From positions 6,361 to 70,360 of the forward strand of contig SVLF01000007.1 in assembly GCA_015068085.1 (NCBI GenBank): a stretch of DNA of 64,000 nt, read 5' to 3'. The position numbers were made by a program, and so were the translations under genes. Positions 15,240-32,339 of this stretch are shown piece by piece. Source of the DNA: Oscillospiraceae bacterium. Its GTDB lineage: Bacteria > Bacillota > Clostridia > Oscillospirales > JAAYXM01. The notes under the pieces were generated by a model, which saw only the letters and a program-made list of their open reading frames with translations, did no database searches and was not told the DNA's origin. Position 1 is the stretch's first letter; the number at the start of each line of letters is the position of its first letter.

Positions 15240-15417
15240 TCCTGTCGCAAATAAAAAGTGCGCAGCCGAAGCTACGCACGAAAAATGCATAACTCCGATT
15301 TGCTGCGACACAAAGTTTTCTCATAACACAGGTATGTGAAAATAGAGCATGCATTTTTACCGAAAGGCAAAAAAACACACCAGTGCTATTGAGAAAATAT
15401 TAACCTTTATGTCGCAG
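15240..15417 (-). ncRNA. Structured 5' leader / attenuator-like RNA of unknown family
   Basis: Promoter TTGCAA-17-TAAAAT with extended TG (15450-15422); 13-bp stem 15405-15417/15303-15315; UUCG terminator 15258-15279 with U tract, just before the SD. Confidence 0.65.
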
Positions 15418-19987: not shown

Positions 19988-20063
<76 letters not shown>

Positions 20064-20170
20064 AACACCTTGGAATCATTGCGGTTTCAAGGTGTTTTGC
20101 TATTTGTGGCGTGCTTTTTCAGAGCGCTTGAATGATTGTAAAATTTCTATTATTCAAGAGGTGCAGATTT

Positions 20171-21103
20171 ATGGCAAGAATTATGATGACAACAAGCGCA
20201 AATCCAACAGCCGAACAAGTGTTTTCTTTCTTCATCTCAGCGACTGCCGCACGAGGTGCAAAAGACAAAACACTTGACACTTACAAACAGCATTTTCGCT
20301 CTATTTCCAAACGACTTGATACCTCAATTCCAATAGGCAATCTGACAAAAGTGCATTTGGATGATATGATATTCGAAATGCGAGCGGGCGGTCTTTCTTC
20401 ACGCTCAATAAACAGTTATACACGCACTCTGAAAACTTTTCTCTCTTGGTGCAACTCTGAAGGATACACTTCTTTGAACATTCCCATTTATAAAGCAAGC
20501 GAATCCACAAAAGAAACATACTCGGATGATGAATTGTTGATACTTTTAAAGAAACCAAGAGCGGGATGTAACTTTTGCGAATACCGCAATTGGGTTATTA
20601 TCAATTTTCTTTTAAATAGCGGTTGTCGCGCGGCAACCGTGCGCAACATTCAGATACAAGATGTATATTTGCAAAATCGTCAGATACTGCTGAGGCATAC
20701 GAAAAATGGCAAACTGCAAACAATCCCGCTCTGCATGGAAATGGTTTCTATTCTCCAAGAGTATATGCAGATACGCGGTGGAAGCAGGACTGATTATCTG
20801 TTCTGCAATGAGTTCGGCAATTATCTTTCCGAAAGTGCCTTGCGGCAGACAATTGTAAAATACAATAGGAAAAGAGGAATAAAGCGAACCTCCATCCATG
20901 CATTTCGGCATACCTTCGCGCGAAAGTATCTTGTAGATTGCGGCGGCGATGCTTTCACATTGCAGAGGATATTAGGACACTCAACTCTTGCAATGACAAA
21001 GCATTATTGCAACATTTTTAATTCAGATATTGTTGATAAATACGAAAGTCTTTCACCACTTGCACAACTTAAAAAAACGAGCGGGAAGTATATCAAAAAA
21101 TAA
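20171..21103 (+). CDS. Tyrosine recombinase/integrase
   Basis: SGCR, HTKN, HAFRHTFA, ILGHS, HY catalytic residues. Confidence 0.95.
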   Translation: MARIMMTTSANPTAEQVFSFFISATAARGAKDKTLDTYKQHFRSISKRLDTSIPIGNLTKVHLDDMIFEMRAGGLSSRSINSYTRTLKTFLSWCNSEGYTSLNIPIYKASESTKETYSDDELLILLKKPRAGCNFCEYRNWVIINFLLNSGCRAATVRNIQIQDVYLQNRQILLRHTKNGKLQTIPLCMEMVSILQEYMQIRGGSRTDYLFCNEFGNYLSESALRQTIVKYNRKRGIKRTSIHAFRHTFARKYLVDCGGDAFTLQRILGHSTLAMTKHYCNIFNSDIVDKYESLSPLAQLKKTSGKYIKK

Positions 21104-21180: not shown

Positions 21181-23106
21181 CTAAAATCTCTCTTTGATTT
21201 TCTCTGTTAAATATTCAATAATCTTTCCATATAAAAATCCCGCAAGTCCTCCACAGAGAATAGTCAAAAGACCGATAGCTATTCCTTTCGCTGTAAATGT
21301 CATATAATTATTTTGCACAAAAATAATTACCAACAGAAGTGCCACATACGGAACACCAAAAACGAGACCCGCAAACACATTGGCAAGAGTTCTTGAAAAT
21401 GACTCTCTTTGAGATTCAACTTTTCTTTCCAGTGTTTGATTTTTCTCAGACACATCCATTTTATCTGTTATAGCTCGACTGAGCTTATCTTTAGTTTTTT
21501 GATGTTCTTCCTTTTCTGTTTCATATTTCTTGTCTCCTTCAAACTGCGCATCCGCCTTAATCTGAACATAAACCTCTCGCCATGTTTGATCAGTAAACTG
21601 AGAATAATCCCCCGACGTAGCATCAAGAAGTTTTGTTTCTACAATAGGATGTGACCTCAAAAACAAAAATTTCTCTTCCGTTAAGCCTTCCGCCTTTTTT
21701 TGATAAGCCTTATCCAAGGAAAGGTTAAAACTGGCAATCATTTGAGGCGTAGGACGCAACAAAGCTCTACAATCTGCTAACAACTTAAAACTACTATAGT
21801 CGTTATTTTCATCACCATAATCCATCCAAAGAAGAGTACCAAAAATATCAGCTGTGATACTTGTCGGTATTATACCCTTAGCTGGCTCTTCTTCGCACGC
21901 AATATCTTTGCTAACCTTCGCAATTACTCTATTTGTTGTTATAAATATAGCCTTTGCAGTTTTAATACTAGTTGATAGTGTTCCTCTTCTTTTTCTTTGA
22001 GTCATCACTATTGATCTGACATCCGTTCTAATACTATTGTCATAAAGTCCTTCAGTAGAATATTTACTATCTCTCTCACTATATTCGTTTTTTATTGCAT
22101 CGGATATCTTTTCTTCGTCGGCTTGGAATTGATTTTCCTCTACCAAGTAGCTGGCATCATATCGAGCGATCCCCATAAGGTTAAGCATACCCTCAACTTC
22201 ACCGATATATTCAACCATTTCCTCAGACGTTTTATCAGAATTACGGAAAAACTGTGCCACCTTATTAGCTTTTGCGGGGTCATAGTCATCACGTTGCGCC
22301 CATCTCGCCGCGCGCTCCATTATTCCTAACACTTCCTGTAAGTTATGGTCAAACACAAAGAGAGACATCCCCACTTTCTTCGCTTTTTCAACGATATATT
22401 GGTATGCATCTTTTCTTTCAAGCGTATCCATCCCCAAAAGCGCAAAAATCATAGGAGTGTCTAAGAATACTTGCAAATCAGATTGTTGTGCAGAATCTGT
22501 ATTTGAATAAAACAAAGTCGCCTTTGCAATATTTGCCATACACAAGCCTTCAACAAAAGCGTGTCGTTCAACATCGCGTTCTCTTAAATCCAGAATATAT
22601 TTACACCAATGATATACGAACTGACTATTTGTAGCGTCTATATCCCCAATATGATTAAAAATAACATGGTCATCATAATCATCTAAAAAGGCAGTGATGT
22701 TTTTTTCTATTTCTTTTTCATTCAAACTATAATTATGTTTTTTTGCATATTCGCCAAAATCTGCAATAAGCGTTTTCCACTTACTTAGAAAACCATCGTC
22801 TGAAAGACGCAGTTTCCTCATCTCTGAAATATCCGGAACATAGCTTCCTTTTACCCTTTTCACCATCTTCCTATCCATAGCTTCACCCAACACCTGTCGA
22901 ACAAAAGTAGGCTGGAACGTTGCGTTGTATTTTTCTTTCAACTTAGAACAAATGATACTTACATCAACAACTTCCATTCCCTCATCAACTATTATAGTTG
23001 CTATGAATGGTAAATATTTGTCGAGAATATTCGAAGAAACAAAATTACTTTTCATCATCGCATATGCCTTAACAAACTGATCTGTCATCATATGTACCTC
23101 CACCAT
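21181..23106 (-). CDS. Hypothetical protein: wHTH-like N-terminus, PIN-like core, coiled coil, two C-terminal TM helices
   Basis: QVFLDTPMIF, later D and FITTN motifs, charged helical stretch, two hydrophobic segments; domain calls made by eye. Confidence 0.65.
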   Translation of the reverse strand: MVEVHMMTDQFVKAYAMMKSNFVSSNILDKYLPFIATIIVDEGMEVVDVSIICSKLKEKYNATFQPTFVRQVLGEAMDRKMVKRVKGSYVPDISEMRKLRLSDDGFLSKWKTLIADFGEYAKKHNYSLNEKEIEKNITAFLDDYDDHVIFNHIGDIDATNSQFVYHWCKYILDLRERDVERHAFVEGLCMANIAKATLFYSNTDSAQQSDLQVFLDTPMIFALLGMDTLERKDAYQYIVEKAKKVGMSLFVFDHNLQEVLGIMERAARWAQRDDYDPAKANKVAQFFRNSDKTSEEMVEYIGEVEGMLNLMGIARYDASYLVEENQFQADEEKISDAIKNEYSERDSKYSTEGLYDNSIRTDVRSIVMTQRKRRGTLSTSIKTAKAIFITTNRVIAKVSKDIACEEEPAKGIIPTSITADIFGTLLWMDYGDENNDYSSFKLLADCRALLRPTPQMIASFNLSLDKAYQKKAEGLTEEKFLFLRSHPIVETKLLDATSGDYSQFTDQTWREVYVQIKADAQFEGDKKYETEKEEHQKTKDKLSRAITDKMDVSEKNQTLERKVESQRESFSRTLANVFAGLVFGVPYVALLLVIIFVQNNYMTFTAKGIAIGLLTILCGGLAGFLYGKIIEYLTEKIKERF

Positions 23107-23195: not shown

Positions 23196-24362
23196 TCAAT
23201 ACATTTTTCTCACGTTTTCTACATAACTCTTGAACTTCTCCACAACATCATCCGGAGCAACTATTTTCACCTTTTTACCAAATCCCAAGAGCCAACCGAA
23301 GAACTGATTGCTGATTTCTACTTTTGCGGTAACTGTGAAATGGCTGTCATCGCATTTGGAATATTGAGCTTCCTTTGTACCGAAACGTTCAATGGCGGTA
23401 TCCAATAGAGGATTGATAAAACGCAAGGTAATTCGCTTTTCTTCACCGCTATACATATTGAAGGCTCTTCGAGTGTATGTTGTCAGGTCTATCTTCTTGA
23501 ACTCTGCTTCTCCGTCTCTTGGTTCTCCGGTATATCGGATGTCTTTCATTCTGTCAACGCGGTATGTCCATAACTTCTTCTTTTTATCATCAAATGCAAG
23601 CAAATAATAATTGCCGTCATTTATCAAAAGTTTGTATGGACTTACGATATATCTTTCGCCTTTTCTTCGGTCTATCTGTTGGTTTACATCGTCAATTGTA
23701 TGCTTCAAGTATTTAAAGCTGATCTTTTCCGGCTCGTGTGCATCATCTCCGTTTCGATAACTCATAGCATCATTGATTGTCATAACGTTTGTGAAAACAT
23801 TTTTGTTTGCGGTTCTCGCCCTATCGACCATAAATGCATCGTGCCTGAGATTTTCTGCCTGATGCTCGCTTACCAACCCACAAACCACATCAATCAATTG
23901 TCTCACTTTCGATTCCGAAACAAATTTTGCCGTATAAACACATTCAGCCAAAAGACGAATATCATTTAACTCAAATTTGCGTTGTTTTACATAAAAGCCT
24001 TTTGAATGTTTGTCATAAACAATTAATTTGAGTTCGTCAAACTCATCATCTGCAAGCATTTCTGCCGCTTCTGAAATCTCGCAATCTTCCTGAAATGCCA
24101 ATGCCACCTTGTTTATATCTTCAATATCGCGGTAAATTGACCTTCTTTCTGCATAAACACCGTAATCAGCGAGAAACCCTTCAATATCGTATGCAGATAC
24201 TGTGTGATTTTCATCTGTCGCAACCAACAGATATTGAAGAACAAGATACGGTTTAAGTTTTTGGTTTTCTCTCTTGCCATGGTGTGCTTCTACCTTACCG
24301 TTTAAATGCTTGTCTGCTTTGCGGTAAAACTTTTTATATTTAATTTCCTCCACGTACATCAC
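23196..24362 (-). CDS. WYL-domain transcriptional regulator
   Basis: N-terminal wHTH (ERRSIYRDI), VSPYKLLINDGNYYLLA, YRVDRM, WCX tail (FFGWLLGFGKKVKIVAP); true start may be GTG 24353. Confidence 0.92.
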   Translation of the reverse strand: MMYVEEIKYKKFYRKADKHLNGKVEAHHGKRENQKLKPYLVLQYLLVATDENHTVSAYDIEGFLADYGVYAERRSIYRDIEDINKVALAFQEDCEISEAAEMLADDEFDELKLIVYDKHSKGFYVKQRKFELNDIRLLAECVYTAKFVSESKVRQLIDVVCGLVSEHQAENLRHDAFMVDRARTANKNVFTNVMTINDAMSYRNGDDAHEPEKISFKYLKHTIDDVNQQIDRRKGERYIVSPYKLLINDGNYYLLAFDDKKKKLWTYRVDRMKDIRYTGEPRDGEAEFKKIDLTTYTRRAFNMYSGEEKRITLRFINPLLDTAIERFGTKEAQYSKCDDSHFTVTAKVEISNQFFGWLLGFGKKVKIVAPDDVVEKFKSYVENVRKMY

Positions 24363-24366
24363 TCCA

Positions 24367-24386
24367 ATTGAAAGTGCACTTTCAAT
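24367..24386. promoter_or_regulatory. 20-bp perfect palindrome over the +1 of the WYL promoter
   Basis: ATTGAAAGTGCACTTTCAAT, directly downstream of the minus-strand TGnTATAAT (24396-24388). Confidence 0.7.
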
Positions 24387-24466
24387 AATTATAACATATA
24401 AGCTTCAAAAATGGAATCTTATTCATTTTTATTGATTTATTTTCCTAAAAGTGATATAATACAATC

Positions 24467-24696
24467 ACCACATACAACAATTTAATATCAATGACAAGAT
24501 ATTTCTACAAATATCTCTATTTGTGTTACACATTTATATGATGTTACACGGCAATATTAAGTTTGTTAAAAACGCAGGCTGAAATATGTTTTGTCGTGTG
24601 ATATTCATATTAGATTGTTGTGTGTGGTAACCAGTAATCAAGCCGCGTTTTTGATGCGTGGTGCAGATTTCTGTTGCCACGCATTTTTTATTTGCG
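24467..24696 (+). ncRNA. Structured RNA / attenuator leader divergent from the WYL gene
   Basis: TTGATT-17-TATAAT with extended TG (24432-24460); 22-bp helix 24467-24488/24607-24628 with two G:U pairs; terminator 24654-24689. Confidence 0.7.
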
Positions 24697-24759
24697 TGAG
24701 ACTTTAGAAAGGAGTTCTTTATTCTTAATTTTAATAATCATATTGAAAGGTGGCTTGAC

Positions 24760-24906
24760 ATGAAAACAATTAAATTTAAAGAAAGCGATAAAGACTTGAT
24801 TCAAAGAATCAAAGAATATCAAAATGCACATGGCTTATCATCGTTTGTGGCAGCAGTTCGCAAACTATGTGCAGATGCCCTTGCAATAGAGAAAATAAGA
24901 CATTAA
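24760..24906 (+). CDS. 48-aa RHH-like small protein (absent from the ORF track)
   Basis: GAAAGGTGG SD; MKTIKFKESDKDLIQRIKEYQNAHGLSSFVAAVRKLCADALAIEKIRH. Confidence 0.65.
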   Translation: MKTIKFKESDKDLIQRIKEYQNAHGLSSFVAAVRKLCADALAIEKIRH

Positions 24907-24921
24907 AAGGAGAAATATCAA

Positions 24922-26280
24922 ATGAAAAAGAAAATTATATCACTTACCCTTAGTGTTGCTATGTTTTTGAGTGTGTTCCCAACAACATTTGCAACGGGAG
25001 GCAGTCTCACAAATTTCAAGAAGAAAAACACATATGTTCCAGGTCAGTTTTCTGACGTTGCTCCTGGTGCATGGTATGAAAATACAGTGGCTTCTGCTTA
25101 CGAAACCGGACTGATCAAGGGCTCATCCGAAACGAGCTTTAACCCAAATGGGAACATAACAATGGCAGAATCGCTCGCTTTGGCTTCCAGAATTCATAAT
25201 ATATATAACGGCGGAAGTGGTGAGTTTACCCAAGGATCACCATGGTATAAGGTTTACGTTGATTATGTAGTGAAAAACGATATATATGAATTGGCATCAC
25301 AGCATTCCCATTCACAGTTAAATGCAAATTGGTCGCGTGAAAATTTTATTAGATGTTTATCAAAAGCAATTCCTGAAGAAGAATTGAACGAAATTAACAG
25401 CATTCCGGATGGTTCTATTCCTGATGTTTTTTGGAAAAATGATGAAATTTATTCTCTTTATAGAGCAGGAATCATTACCGGTAATGATGAAAAAGGAACG
25501 TTCAATGCAAATTCCCCAATCAAGCGCTGTGAAGTAGCAACAATTGTTGCGCGGTTGATAGACAAATCGAAGAGAGTAAAGTTTTCCTTGTCCGGTGGTC
25601 TTGTGATGCCTGACTCTATCACAATAGAAGAACAAAAAGACGCCATTAACATAGGTAACAGAATATATTTGCATGCAACCGTATTACCGGACACTTTACG
25701 CACTAACAAGACTTTGGTATGGTCATCCGATAATCCAACGGTTGCCTCAGTAGATGACGATGGGGATGTAACAGGGTTGACACCTGGAGAAGCAAACATA
25801 ACCGCGACAACGGTAAACGGACTTTCTTATACAGTACGCGTTAAGGTAATGGATCTCCGTCCGAAATTTACATATGATTCAGTAAAAGAATTAGCCATAG
25901 CATGTTCCGAAGCAGGCGATGCTGGTATCCGAATGTCCAACTATCTCTCAGCAGCACTGGATGATCTGCTCGACAGAGAAAACATCTATTTGCGTTATTC
26001 TATGATAAAGAAAGAAGCGGAGAGTGTATCATGGGATTTGACAACAGCTATCAAAATACTCAAAAAACACGTCCCGGTAAAATTAACAGACGGTAGCACA
26101 TTGTTGGAGCTGGCTGAAAAGGCTCTTTCAGCCAATGAAAAAATAATAGCATTAGAAATGACTGAGGACACAGCTATTGAACGTTCTATAGAACTTTACG
26201 ATTTGGTTAGCGACTATCTTATCCATACTTCAGCTATCATAGGCATCGTCGCGGATATGTCAGCCAATGTTGTCAAATAG
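24922..26280 (+). CDS. SLH-domain surface protein with Big_2 Ig-like domain
   Basis: Signal peptide; FSDV...GLIKG...FNPNGNIT and GIITG...IKRCE SLH repeats; WSSDNPTVASVD. Confidence 0.88.
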   Translation: MKKKIISLTLSVAMFLSVFPTTFATGGSLTNFKKKNTYVPGQFSDVAPGAWYENTVASAYETGLIKGSSETSFNPNGNITMAESLALASRIHNIYNGGSGEFTQGSPWYKVYVDYVVKNDIYELASQHSHSQLNANWSRENFIRCLSKAIPEEELNEINSIPDGSIPDVFWKNDEIYSLYRAGIITGNDEKGTFNANSPIKRCEVATIVARLIDKSKRVKFSLSGGLVMPDSITIEEQKDAINIGNRIYLHATVLPDTLRTNKTLVWSSDNPTVASVDDDGDVTGLTPGEANITATTVNGLSYTVRVKVMDLRPKFTYDSVKELAIACSEAGDAGIRMSNYLSAALDDLLDRENIYLRYSMIKKEAESVSWDLTTAIKILKKHVPVKLTDGSTLLELAEKALSANEKIIALEMTEDTAIERSIELYDLVSDYLIHTSAIIGIVADMSANVVK

Positions 26281-26338: not shown

Positions 26339-26899
26339 TCATTTTCTCGCCCTGACCAACGTACTTTTACTGATGCCGGTCATTTCAGTTACTTGTTTGT
26401 ATGTCTTGCCTTGTTCCAATAGTGAAAGCGCAAGTTGCAGTTGTTGCGGTGTGTATTTCTTCGGTCTGCCTTCTCTGAAATTTGCATCTTGTCGTGCGAG
26501 CATCTTTCCGGTTTGCGTGCGCTCGACAATCATTCCTCTTTCATACTCAGCAAACGCGAGCATAACAGTCAGTATCAGATTTCCGGTGAGCGTATTTTCA
26601 ATCAGTCCCATATTCAGAATGTGAACTCTTATGTTCCGTTCAAACAGTTCGCGCACTGTCTGAACCCCTTCTATTGCGGTTCGCGCAAATCTGTCGAGCT
26701 TGCTGACAACCAATGTATCACCCTCTTGGAGTTGTTCCAACAGAGAAAGAAACGCAGGTCGTTCCATCGTCTTTCCGGTAAATGCTTCTTTGATTATCTT
26801 TTGACATCCGTATTTTTCAAGTGCGGCAACCTGCTCTTCAAGGCTGTTGCCGTCGCGCCCTTGTGCGGTTGTCGACACACGTGCATATCCGTAAATCAT
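26339..26899 (-). CDS. Serine recombinase (resolvase/invertase)
   Basis: [26 protein letters not shown]-terminal HTH. Confidence 0.95.
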
Positions 26900-26927
26900 A
26901 TCAATTTTCTCCTTTACTTTTGGTTCT

Positions 26928-26987
26928 AAGTTATGACACCGCGCAAACCCGCATATTTTCAGCATTAGAAAAACGGTGTCATAACTT
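26928..26987. promoter_or_regulatory. Putative res site / resolvase binding inverted repeat
   Basis: AAGTTATGACACCG...CGGTGTCATAACTT, 14-bp IR upstream of the resolvase. Confidence 0.6.
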
Positions 26988-30578: not shown

Positions 30579-31052
30579 TTCCTTTCATAATTAAATTTGA
30601 TTTTTTATTGTTTATGATTTTCTTTTTATTTAAGTTTTCTGCGTTAGACTGTTACCTACGATGTGTCAACTTTCATTTTTTCTTTTCTCCTTTCCGCAAG
30701 TTTTTTTGTCTCGTCCCTTGCTTTGTGAATATAGTATACCAAATACAAAACAAAAACCAGTCGTTTTAATGGTAAGTTTATAAAAAGTTACAATAAAAAA
30801 ACTGCAAGCTTTTTTGCCCACAGTTTCAGTACATATTCAAAGTTGTATCAGACTTGTTTGCTACTGGAATAAACGTTGAAGATTAGATGTATAAAAGTTG
30901 ATTAAAAGATGTTATTGTGTTATAATGTTTTTAGCAATCAGTTCAAGCAGTTTATATAAGCAATGAATCAAGAGGTTTTGAAACGGGAGTTGCCTGAGAG
31001 CGCTTGCTTGCGGGGAACTCGACAGAGTTCACCGGAGCCGATAGTTCGGCTC

Positions 31053-31102
31053 AATGGCATTCAAGAGGTCATGGGTTCGATCCCCACCGTCTCCACCAAA
31101 CA
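31053..31102 (+). repeat. attR: duplicate of the tRNA-Ala 3' half
   Basis: Identical to 20018-20067. Confidence 0.95.
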
Positions 31103-31112
31103 GAAAACGTAC

Positions 31113-31393
31113 CATCCGTAAGGTTGGTACGTTTTTTGTTTTGGTGTTACGCGAGACGGTGAGGGATCGAACAGGACGGCGCTCCGCAGAGCGCAAAAAG
31201 GGTGCCGGTGGCACGCTTTTTAGTCCGCGGGTAGATCCCCAATGTAAGTTTACGAAGAACGCAAATGGCATCCGTAAGGTTGGTACGTTTTTTGTTTTGA
31301 TGTTACGCGAGACGGTGAGGGAGCGAACAGGACGGCGCTCCGCAGAGCGCAAAAAGGGTGCCGGTGGCACGCTTTTTAGTCCGCGGGTAGATC
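31113..31393 (+). repeat. Two near-identical 125-bp direct repeats (period 156)
   Basis: 31113-31237 and 31269-31393, from CATCCGTAAGGTTGGTACG to CCGCGGGTAGATC. Confidence 0.9.
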
Positions 31394-31400
31394 TCCTGTG

Positions 31401-32339
31401 TTAAAACAGCTTATCATTGATCATATATATAGGCTTTGCCATTTTACCTGTGGTATCTAAATTATATTTAGATTCAAAATATTTTATTATCTCTTCTTCG
31501 GATGGGAATTCTATCCATTGATATGGTTCCTGGAACGCTAATTTTTCCAAAAGATATACAGAACCATCTTTTTCATATATCACTCCTGCATGATCCAGAA
31601 ACAGAAACGGATCAGATTCATCTACGGTATTGTGCACAACAAGACCGATAAATTTTAATTTGGAATTTTTAAATTGAATTCCTCTCTCCTTAAGAGCTTG
31701 CTCCAAAACCTTTTTTTGAACCTCTTTATCAGTTGATAAGCTTGTAGGTATTGGTGCATAAAAGTTTTCAAATGCCTTTAAATTTTCATCTGTCATATAT
31801 TTAGCGGGCATCATTTCAAACGAATTACTGTCAAAAGCCAATGTCCACATGGATGTTTTTTCAAAATCAGTGTTGTTTATCAGGATATCATCTCTCAACA
31901 ATGTAAACACTGCCATTCTGCAACAAACACCAACAAAATCAGGATATTTTTGCTCCCATACGTCGTTTATCTCATAAGGGTCGTAATTCACTTTATCCAA
32001 AGTGTTCCAACCCTTCAAAACCGATTCGGGCGCAGTTTCATTGTATATATTAACGTAGTTAATACAATCTTTAATATATGATTCTTTTATTCCTGCTTTT
32101 TCCAAATCCTTGCTAAGCTCTGATTGATCTTCTTCAGAAATCAAGTTACTGAATTTCACCTCGGGATTTACATAGGGATCTGTTATCCCACTGGATCTCA
32201 GATCTTTCGCATATCCGCTTTGGTTTTTATCAGGACTGTTCTCCCCCAAATTATCTGAACAAGCAGAAAATAATGCTGTCACCATAACTGATATTAAAAA
32301 TACACTCAAAATTCTTTCAGCACTTTTTAAAACCTTCAT
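31401..32339 (-). CDS. Lipoprotein, DUF4300-like
   Basis: Lipobox FSAC; C(C)R, LFLDHAGV, EKLAFQEPYQ motifs. Confidence 0.8.
   Translation of the reverse strand: MKVLKSAERILSVFLISVMVTALFSACSDNLGENSPDKNQSGYAKDLRSSGITDPYVNPEVKFSNLISEEDQSELSKDLEKAGIKESYIKDCINYVNIYNETAPESVLKGWNTLDKVNYDPYEINDVWEQKYPDFVGVCCRMAVFTLLRDDILINNTDFEKTSMWTLAFDSNSFEMMPAKYMTDENLKAFENFYAPIPTSLSTDKEVQKKVLEQALKERGIQFKNSKLKFIGLVVHNTVDESDPFLFLDHAGVIYEKDGSVYLLEKLAFQEPYQWIEFPSEEEIIKYFESKYNLDTTGKMAKPIYMINDKLF

Follow-up and report, generated by a model that had tools for sequence, protein, structure and literature searches.

Rod-shaped leader RNAs with competing helices in gut Clostridia: a candidate transcription-attenuation family

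Introduction

A stretch of 64,000 nucleotides from an Oscillospiraceae bacterium (assembly GCA_015068085.1, contig SVLF01000007.1, positions 6,361 to 70,360 of the forward strand; hereafter, the window) carries, between a divergently oriented gene of a WYL regulator and a gene of an SLH surface protein, a highly self-complementary segment of about 225 nt, preceded by a promoter and closed by a terminator. What does the RNA made from this segment do? A sequence-only reading of the locus had left two answers standing: an attenuator gating the genes behind it, or a free-standing RNA that would be the ligand or antitoxin of the WYL protein and its 641-aa neighbour. The analysis described here favours the former, with a probability of roughly 0.65: the RNA seems to be a cis-acting transcription-attenuation leader that tunes read-through from its own promoter into a cargo operon consisting of a 48-aa open reading frame (ORF) and the SLH/Big_2 gene.

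Gene control is poorly understood in uncultured gut Clostridia, including the Oscillospiraceae and their relatives. Under strict filters, about one class-level genome in six among those sampled contained the leader family, whose members precede surface, secreted and mobile-element genes, and the family represents a compact terminator switch with alternative helices that are unusually well supported by covariation. Identification of its input would explain how many accessory and cell-surface genes are set, and could yield orthogonal parts for engineering.

Results and Discussion

The Leader RNA and Its Fold

The near-consensus promoter recognised in the earlier reading was borne out: it is the best of six promoter-like sites in the region 24200-25000 and is aligned and conserved in relatives (coordinates of all features are given in Table 1). 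The RNA of the plus strand between 24460 and 24700 has a minimum free energy (MFE) of -81.5 kcal/mol and a z-score of -7.28, and none of 200 shuffled sequences folded equally well; the z-score of the opposite strand is -4.42.

The greater part of the leader is a long rod built of three stems. The terminal helix P1, previously described as 22 bp with two G:U pairs, comes close to that description, as the MFE fold gives 18 uninterrupted base pairs, two of them U:G, and its arms make up an inverted repeat of 26 nt (24467-24492 / 24603-24628) with 88% complementarity. In the inner part of P1, 8 of 13 pairs have changed on both sides within the subfamily of the window leader. The small hairpin P2, with four pairs changed on both sides, is conserved in this subfamily and missing from some short members, and the long stem P3, which carries the apex of the rod, is wholly different in sequence between members, its pairing being kept. 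A further inner pairing proposed between 24487-24505 and 24581-24604 did not hold up: only a 10-nt complement (24496-24505 / 24581-24590) exists there and, contrary to the proposal, the family consensus assigns these stretches to P2 and P3. The two copies of TGTTACAC noticed in the loop are indeed present (24524-24531 and 24542-24549), but they are not conserved in relatives.

The apex of the rod bears a segment X, which is complementary to a segment X' located just ahead of the terminator. The core of this complementarity, AAAAACGC at 24568-24575 with GCGTTTTT at 24645-24652, had been described correctly, and it extends to a 12-bp pairing that is conserved family-wide. The strong terminator, T2, was likewise recovered, as a hairpin of -16.0 kcal/mol followed by U6. 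A simple consensus scan called no terminator-like site in the region 24200-25000, T2 included, probably because of an unpaired base in the T2 stem. The 5' end of the leader mimics the 3' arm of the terminator.

Several other properties of the segment were considered. The repeat scan found no tandem repeat in 24432-24906 and hence no tandem-repeat arrangement of the ToxI-like type. Antisense promoter-like sites at the leader reach only 9/12 matches and lie in stretches that vary between members, and no conserved antisense promoter was found there. An ATG-started frame of 16 codons at 24491 has, by eye, no Shine-Dalgarno sequence, and its ATG is absent in locus L017 and in other members; a leader peptide was dropped from consideration, the short ORF not being conserved between members on inspection by eye.

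A Family of Related Leaders

A covariance model, R1, was built from an alignment of ten sequences (A2). It scores the window leader at 192.1 bits. Of 32 genomes from the same family, 21 have matches (E <= 1e-3); at E <= 1e-4 with stricter filters, so do 20 of 151 genomes of the same order and 24 of 150 genomes of the same class, the class search giving up to eight copies per genome. A leader homologue with 75% identity, having the same promoter and terminator, is present in a genome of the same genus (G007). The window also contains a second, diverged family member on the minus strand with a promoter of its own (15252-15417), probably the 'copy A' of the sequence-only reading; it was detected by the covariance model only, the similarity search of the own genome having given no second copy. 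Relatives of the window copy scoring at least 150 bits are spread over a number of families within the class, a distribution in keeping with transport on mobile islands.

A genome scan with a 15-nt pattern returned 120 stretches, mainly chance matches, among which nhmmer singled out three clear matches (L067, L146 and L049, the last being the contig of L017), a partial one (L045) and two weak ones with E of about 5e-4 (L027 and L035); the weak match in L027 sits in coding-looking sequence. A weak R1 match in L193 (19 bits) was rejected as a family member, since it covers the terminator hairpin only.

Comparison with Rfam 15, the families of which include the T-box, riboswitches and ToxI, gave only a tRNA for the whole window. 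In the part from 24350 to 24960, a search at E <= 10 yielded four matches at chance level and without relevance; at 20 other family loci nothing was reported at the position of the RNA. The Rfam models of c4, IsrK and sRNA-Xcc1 do not match the leader even at E <= 10. The literature search found no publication describing the family. In the accessible portion of the main text of PMC8040213 the terms Ruminococcaceae, Faecalibacterium, Oscillospir- and attenuator are all absent; the supplements of that paper list thousands of unnamed motifs and could contain the family.

For tests of the architecture, 41 members were collected. All 41 end with a terminator hairpin and a U-tract, and the rod recurs among them with a P1 of 16-26 bp and with P2 as an optional small hairpin. 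Pairs of the G:U type make up 245 of the 2113 pairs of the rods. In every member the rod folds more stably in the sense orientation than as the reverse complement, by 12.8 kcal/mol on average, and selection therefore acts on this strand as RNA. In a subfamily of ten sequences, 92.4% of the cells of P1, P2, T2 and X:X' are paired and 15 pairs have changed on both sides, values that none of 500 shuffles reach.

Competing Pairings

Judging from the way in which the sequences covary, four mutually exclusive pairings are kept in the family: X with X', X' with the 5' arm of T2, the end of P1 and the spacer with the 3' arm of T2, and T2 itself. None of the first three can coexist with the fold that combines the rod with the terminator. 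Segment X consists of the apex A-tract and 8-14 further nucleotides, and X' ends in U5 directly 5' of the terminator. In every member but L020 (40 of 41), no upstream stretch pairs better with X' than the apex A-tract, and the variable cores of the two segments match pairwise (CGCAGGCU/AGCCNCG, UGCGAACUCC/GGAGUUUGCG, GUGUUUUCUC/GAGAAGCAC). The pairing of X' with the 5' arm and loop of T2 has a z-score below -2 in 31 members and below -1 in 40. For the end of the P1 3' strand and the spacer, paired with the loop and 3' arm of T2, the z-score is below -2 in 25 of the 41, and the spacer and the terminator loop change together (CAUGAAAU/AUUUCUG, CAUUAAAUC/GGUUUAAG, CUCUUAAC/GUUUAAGAG, AAAAGUC/GACUUUU). 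Combined, these two pairings form one long antiterminator hairpin, the 3' strand of which is the whole terminator. Another candidate, the P1 5' strand with the 5' arm of T2, was found by hand in the subfamily of the window and dropped because it is absent in members of the GCCAAAC type.

Cognate partners were then compared with permuted ones (10000 permutations) in 24 non-redundant members sharing less than 75% identity in the region. The mean energy of X:X' is -18.9 kcal/mol for cognate vs -14.6 kcal/mol for permuted partners; the corresponding values are -13.6 and -10.3 kcal/mol for X' with the 5' arm and loop of T2, and -12.8 and -10.0 kcal/mol for the P1 end and spacer with the loop and 3' arm of T2. 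In each of the three comparisons, not one of the 10000 permutations reached the cognate mean.

Forcing the antiterminator to form costs a median of 6.0 kcal/mol (3.4 kcal/mol in the window and nothing in 4 of the 41 members), and these modelled energies support a switch that would be near balance. When 30 nt of downstream RNA are included, the MFE fold of the window leader adopts the inner antiterminator, and the 3' arm of T2 pairs with the GCGUG of a conserved 21-nt box lying behind the terminator (24678-24683 with 24693-24698).

Proposed Mechanism

The pairings suggest a logic of four segments, in which X would be segment 1, X' segment 2, and the arms of the terminator segments 3 and 4, with no sign of a conserved leader peptide. 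Two additions to this logic are the local apex hairpin, which locks segment 1, and the contribution of the P1 foot. From the pairings and their conservation, which are observed, we infer the effect on RNA polymerase and the direction of the switch. The long rod (P1, P2, P3) would display X at its apex, to be followed by the spacer, X' and T2. As long as X occupies X' and the 5' end of the RNA occupies the P1 foot, T2 would form and the transcript would stop at about 24689. With X' and the P1 foot free, the antiterminator would form and RNA polymerase would read on; in the read-through RNA, the GCGUG of the 21-nt box would further lock the 3' arm of T2. The rod conserves pairing and not sequence, which makes a pocket for a small molecule unlikely; a more likely input is a protein, a partner RNA or the kinetics of folding.

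The locus has what is expected of an attenuator based on an intrinsic terminator, namely a hairpin with a U-tract before a gene of the same strand and a covarying helix exclusive with the terminator. The idea of an attenuator gating cargo thus gains support, as both the terminator and the antiterminator covary and genes of the same strand follow most members.

Some observations weigh against this interpretation. The start and end of the transcript and the read-through are deduced, there being no RNA among the listed sequencing runs that hold the stretch. In the close subfamily the sequence hardly changes, and for this reason covariation of the antiterminator is no stronger than in shuffled controls, with 86% pairing and equally high values in 162 of 500 shuffles; the support for the antiterminator comes from the wider family and from an alignment-free, purpose-made test, the values of which can be inflated by relatedness. 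The X:X' helix crosses P1 and P3 and, forced as a nested helix, has a median cost of 22 kcal/mol, so that it requires either a fold-back pseudoknot or two separate molecules. The genes downstream are heterogeneous and therefore provide no clue to the signal. Moreover, in L150 and in both copies of L176 the unit has no downstream gene and is followed by another terminator, and L164 (G026:C55, 1225-1868) contains a tandem triplet of promoter-RNA-terminator units with no ORF between them, followed by the gene of a secreted His-rich protein; these orphan and tandem units would be better explained by a free-standing RNA.

Alternative Explanations

The orphan and tandem units speak for a stand-alone or dual-function small RNA, in which the terminated unit is the product and X acts in trans on X' of its own locus as a self-antisense RNA similar to IsrK or c4, possibly with other targets in addition. 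We consider this rather unlikely, although it would explain why X:X' is the strongest conserved pairing and yet is topologically awkward in cis. It also agrees with the differences in X and X' among the paralogues of one genome (G000: the window copy, the copy at 15252-15417, L170 and L175), each of which matches its own partner, but covariation in cis alone would also make paralogues differ. The precedent is the Gifsy-1 prophage, where, according to PMC4825925, the short isoform of IsrK acts in trans on the read-through isoform from the same promoter. Against a small RNA stand the partial locking of X in the local apex hairpin and the failure of the c4, IsrK and sRNA-Xcc1 models to match; besides, an RNA of this kind is compatible with attenuation and does not exclude it. 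It is highly improbable that the element functions at the DNA level, as a miniature inverted-repeat transposable element (MITE), a single-strand origin or a switch inverted by the nearby resolvase. The long terminal inverted repeat, the many copies per genome, the location on an island and the serine recombinase gene would suit such an element, but the compensatory and G:U changes work on the sense strand only, in agreement with the greater stability of the sense rod in all members, and the sequences of the arms are unconserved between copies. Each copy has a promoter before it and a terminator behind it, in an orientation fixed to the next gene, and the 21-nt box is single in the genome and never inverted.

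The second of the original answers, in which the leader is a ligand, antitoxin or direct partner of the WYL protein and/or the 641-aa protein, appears improbable. There are WYL domains that bind RNA or single-stranded nucleic acid, and the promoters of the WYL gene and the leader are back-to-back, as the intergenic comparison showed. A tblastn search with the WYL protein of the window placed homologues next to the RNA in two loci, L025 (with 55% identity) and L146 (where only the N-terminus matched); a search for related loci with the same protein gave just one locus. In 30 loci of WYL homologues, R1 detected two divergent upstream RNAs, each followed by a lipoprotein gene: one in L192, at 56 bits, and one in L191, at 23.7 bits, the latter verified by inspection. 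Within the closest WYL clade (49-60% identity), the leader is located divergently upstream in six of eight loci (the window, L025, L146, L219, L192 and L191), the two without it being L188 and L190; this makes it plausible that the two are tied together locally in their regulation, by way of the back-to-back promoters. Co-occurrence of the RNA with WYL, one of the expectations raised earlier, thus holds inside this clade and is weak from the side of the RNA: within flanks of about 1.5 kb, a WYL gene is present in only 3 of 47 family loci, even counting a distant WYL-WCX gene downstream of the family member in L157, and in one of five later loci (L219). Ten genomes with the RNA (G002, G004, G007, G008, G009, G014, G016, G020, G022 and G028) have no WYL match at E <= 1e-20. 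The 641-aa protein is not conserved beside WYL homologues, an integrase taking its place in L188. Scans of it against Pfam, PHROG, PADLOC and NCBIfam gave no family above threshold, and in particular no defence family and, at E <= 0.01, no PIN family, so that the label 'PIN-like' given to it is not backed by the scans; no toxin signature was seen, and weak similarities point to a C-terminal 5TM region and to a stretch of YqeK that is HD-like. The RNA shows no tandem-repeat antitoxin architecture and is divergent from, not upstream of, the WYL and 641-aa genes, a placement for which a DNA-binding regulator of two back-to-back promoters is the simpler explanation. The leader RNA is not dedicated to the WYL pair, and the neighbourhood is most simply read as a cargo operon controlled by the leader, with a DNA-binding regulator of the island next to it.

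A further reading is a scheme of self-addressed RNA feedback, which we regard as doubtful: each locus would make a stable terminated leader, X of which would pair in trans only with X' of nascent transcripts of the same locus. If this is true, X:X' pairing in trans strips the antiterminator of one strand and forces termination, and the paralogous leaders, up to eight per genome, would be orthogonal, copy-specific autoregulators of surface and accessory genes. Plasmid-style antisense attenuation would then have been rebuilt on a single strand and spread through the chromosomes and islands of gut Clostridia. In a variant of the scheme, the WYL protein would read the leader RNA in islands of the WYL clade.

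Downstream Genes and the 21-nt Box

As noted earlier, the 48-aa ORF and the SLH gene lie behind the RNA. The ORF is probably a real gene, judging from its eight clusters of homologues of 48-56 aa with 65-81% identity. No Pfam match to it was found at E <= 0.01. The AlphaFold2 model (pLDDT 87) consists of a coil (residues 1-7) and two helices (8-24 and 26-47), and 9 of the 14 rows of the Foldseek output are CopG, NikR or CdbA, only at E of 3.5-10. With matches this weak and a model of two helices, the earlier description of the peptide as 'RHH-like' (ribbon-helix-helix) is compatible with the data and is not established by them. The SLH/Big_2 gene is likely the regulated cargo.

An ORF of the same strand preceded by a Shine-Dalgarno sequence begins within 300 nt behind the terminator in 36 of the 41 members, as called by an automatic rule of which a few calls are doubtful. 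The Pfam search of 29 downstream ORFs identified Cu_amine_oxidN1 (three), YspA SLOG (two) and DUF1540 (two), as well as BspA-type LRR, DUF6273, a WYL-WCX regulator, a zinc ribbon, SHOCT/DUF4428 and an AMP-binding enzyme. Many other products are lipoprotein-like by their N-terminus, and the products are often secreted or surface proteins.

The 21-nt box between the terminator and the 48-aa ORF is found in nine loci from eight contigs of metagenome-assembled genomes (Oscillospiraceae/Clostridia), and in seven of the eight contigs it is preceded by the RNA. The box may act as a stand-by or decoy site for ribosomes, be a site of processing or mark the boundary of a cassette. The 3' half of the box repeats the true Shine-Dalgarno region (AGAAAGGA). 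In L021 and L022 (second gene) the box stands without a leader, and the ribosome-binding sites of genes of lipoproteins or secreted proteins follow it after about 55-60 nt. A shufflon or invertible switch of the box, operated by the nearby resolvase, was rejected owing to the single, uninverted occurrence of the box in the genome.

Genomic Setting

The leader locus is situated on an island of about 11 kb integrated at tRNA-Ala(GGC) (19988-20063). The borders of the island are a repeat of the 3' part of the tRNA (20001-20067 and 31036-31102), and the 3' 47 nt of the tRNA recur exactly at the right-hand border (31056-31102). The features of the locus and its neighbours are listed in Table 1.

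Table 1. Features of the leader locus and of other parts of the window discussed in the text.
Feature	Position	Strand	Remarks
Second, diverged family member	15252-15417	-	R1 35.9 bits, E 2e-05; own promoter, then 87-aa ORF
Integrase gene	20132-21103		Island gene; adjoins tRNA-Ala(GGC)
641-aa protein gene	21181-23106	-	Downstream of WYL gene; no family above threshold
WYL-WCX regulator gene	23196-24362	-	Divergent from leader; Pfam WYL 4.9e-11, WCX 2.9e-08
Sigma-70-type promoter	24432-24460	+	TTGATT 24432-24437, 17-nt spacer, TATAAT 24455-24460, TG upstream; 10/12 matches
Leader RNA, about 225 nt	24467-24690	+	Start deduced from -10 box; 3' end is terminator U-tract
P1, terminal helix	24467-24484 with 24611-24628	+	18 uninterrupted bp, 2 U:G (MFE fold); extendable towards 24492/24603
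P2, hairpin	24497-24504 with 24509-24516	+	RNAalifold columns 51-58 with 64-71; centroid fold
P3, long stem carrying the apex	24536-24558 with 24583-24610	+	MFE fold
Segment X (AAAAACGCAGGCU), at apex	24568-24580	+	Alternative partners: local apex hairpin (24560-24566 with 24574-24580) or X'
Segment X' (AGCCGCGUUUUU)	24641-24652	+	Pairs with X (12 bp) or with terminator 5' arm
5' strand of long antiterminator hairpin (P1 3'-strand end, spacer, X')	24620-24648	+	Complementary to entire terminator 24656-24684
Intrinsic terminator T2	24655-24689	+	Hairpin 24655-24683 (-16.0 kcal/mol), U6 24684-24689
21-nt box GCGTGAGACTTTAGAAAGGAG	24694-24714	+	Conserved; contains Shine-Dalgarno-like AAAGGAG
48-aa ORF	24760-24906	+	First gene behind leader; good ribosome-binding site
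SLH + Big_2 surface-protein gene	24922-26280	+	Pfam SLH 1.4e-14, Big_2 1.2e-12
Resolvase (serine recombinase) gene	26339-26965		Island gene
SprT-like gene			Carried on island

Directly ahead of the start codon of the WYL gene there is a perfect 10+10 palindrome, ATTGAAAGTG|CACTTTCAAT (24367-24386), a candidate operator that is not obviously conserved in other intergenic regions between WYL genes and leaders. A small gene of an XRE-type helix-turn-helix protein (about 66-99 aa, motif ...SQY.LIK...STGQLDRLRKN...) is located beside the leader or WYL homologues in L018, L024, L188 and L190. This recurrence suggests that the islands draw on a common set of parts, namely integrase, WYL, XRE, leader, lipoprotein cargo and resolvase. 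Outside the island, the right-hand tRNA repeat is directly followed by two direct repeats of 133 nt (31113-31245 and 31269-31401), 96% identical and 156 nt apart, and in the part of the window between 49496 and 58718 the repeat families D3, D4, D6-D9 and D12 are promoter-like or leader-like stretches ahead of large minus-strand genes.

Comparison with Known Systems

Attenuators of the trp-operon type operate by the alternative pairings 1:2, 2:3 and 3:4. The leader family resembles them in having a terminator (3:4), an antiterminator that uses the 5' arm of T2 (2:3) and an upstream sequestering segment (1:2), each of which covaries here. Unlike the trp type, it has no conserved leader peptide, its segment 1 is located at the tip of a rod of about 40 bp, far from segment 2, and a fifth element (segment a) can lock segment 1; furthermore, its antiterminator covers the whole terminator and borrows the foot of P1. 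With riboswitches that employ terminator platforms the family shares the promoter, the structured 5' domain and the mutually exclusive terminator and antiterminator. It differs from them in the absence of an Rfam match, in sensor helices that keep pairing and not sequence, in conserved letters that are mostly A/U tracts and switching segments, and in downstream genes that share no pathway.

On the Gram-positive plasmids pT181 and pIP501/pAMbeta1, transcription attenuation is driven by a countertranscript. In the leaders of these low-G+C Gram-positive systems, as is proposed here, a terminator can form before the gene once a 'pre-emptor' segment is sequestered. The plasmids use an RNA of the opposite strand, whereas here the complementary segment is on the same strand, and the leaders are chromosomal or island-borne, present in many copies and not engaged in replication control.

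The c4 antisense RNA of phages P1 and P7 is, together with IsrK, a further system for comparison. They share with the present family an island-borne promoter giving rise to a short terminated RNA and a read-through mRNA, the latter deduced in our case, and a leader segment complementary to a downstream segment of the same transcript, so that by analogy action in trans may be possible. According to PMC4825925, IsrK acts on the translation of orf45, whereas here the complementary segment abuts the terminator. The kind of device is known, and its build appears new: a rod with an anti-antiterminator at the apex, an antiterminator that takes in the whole terminator, and many paralogues, with no leader peptide or known ligand.

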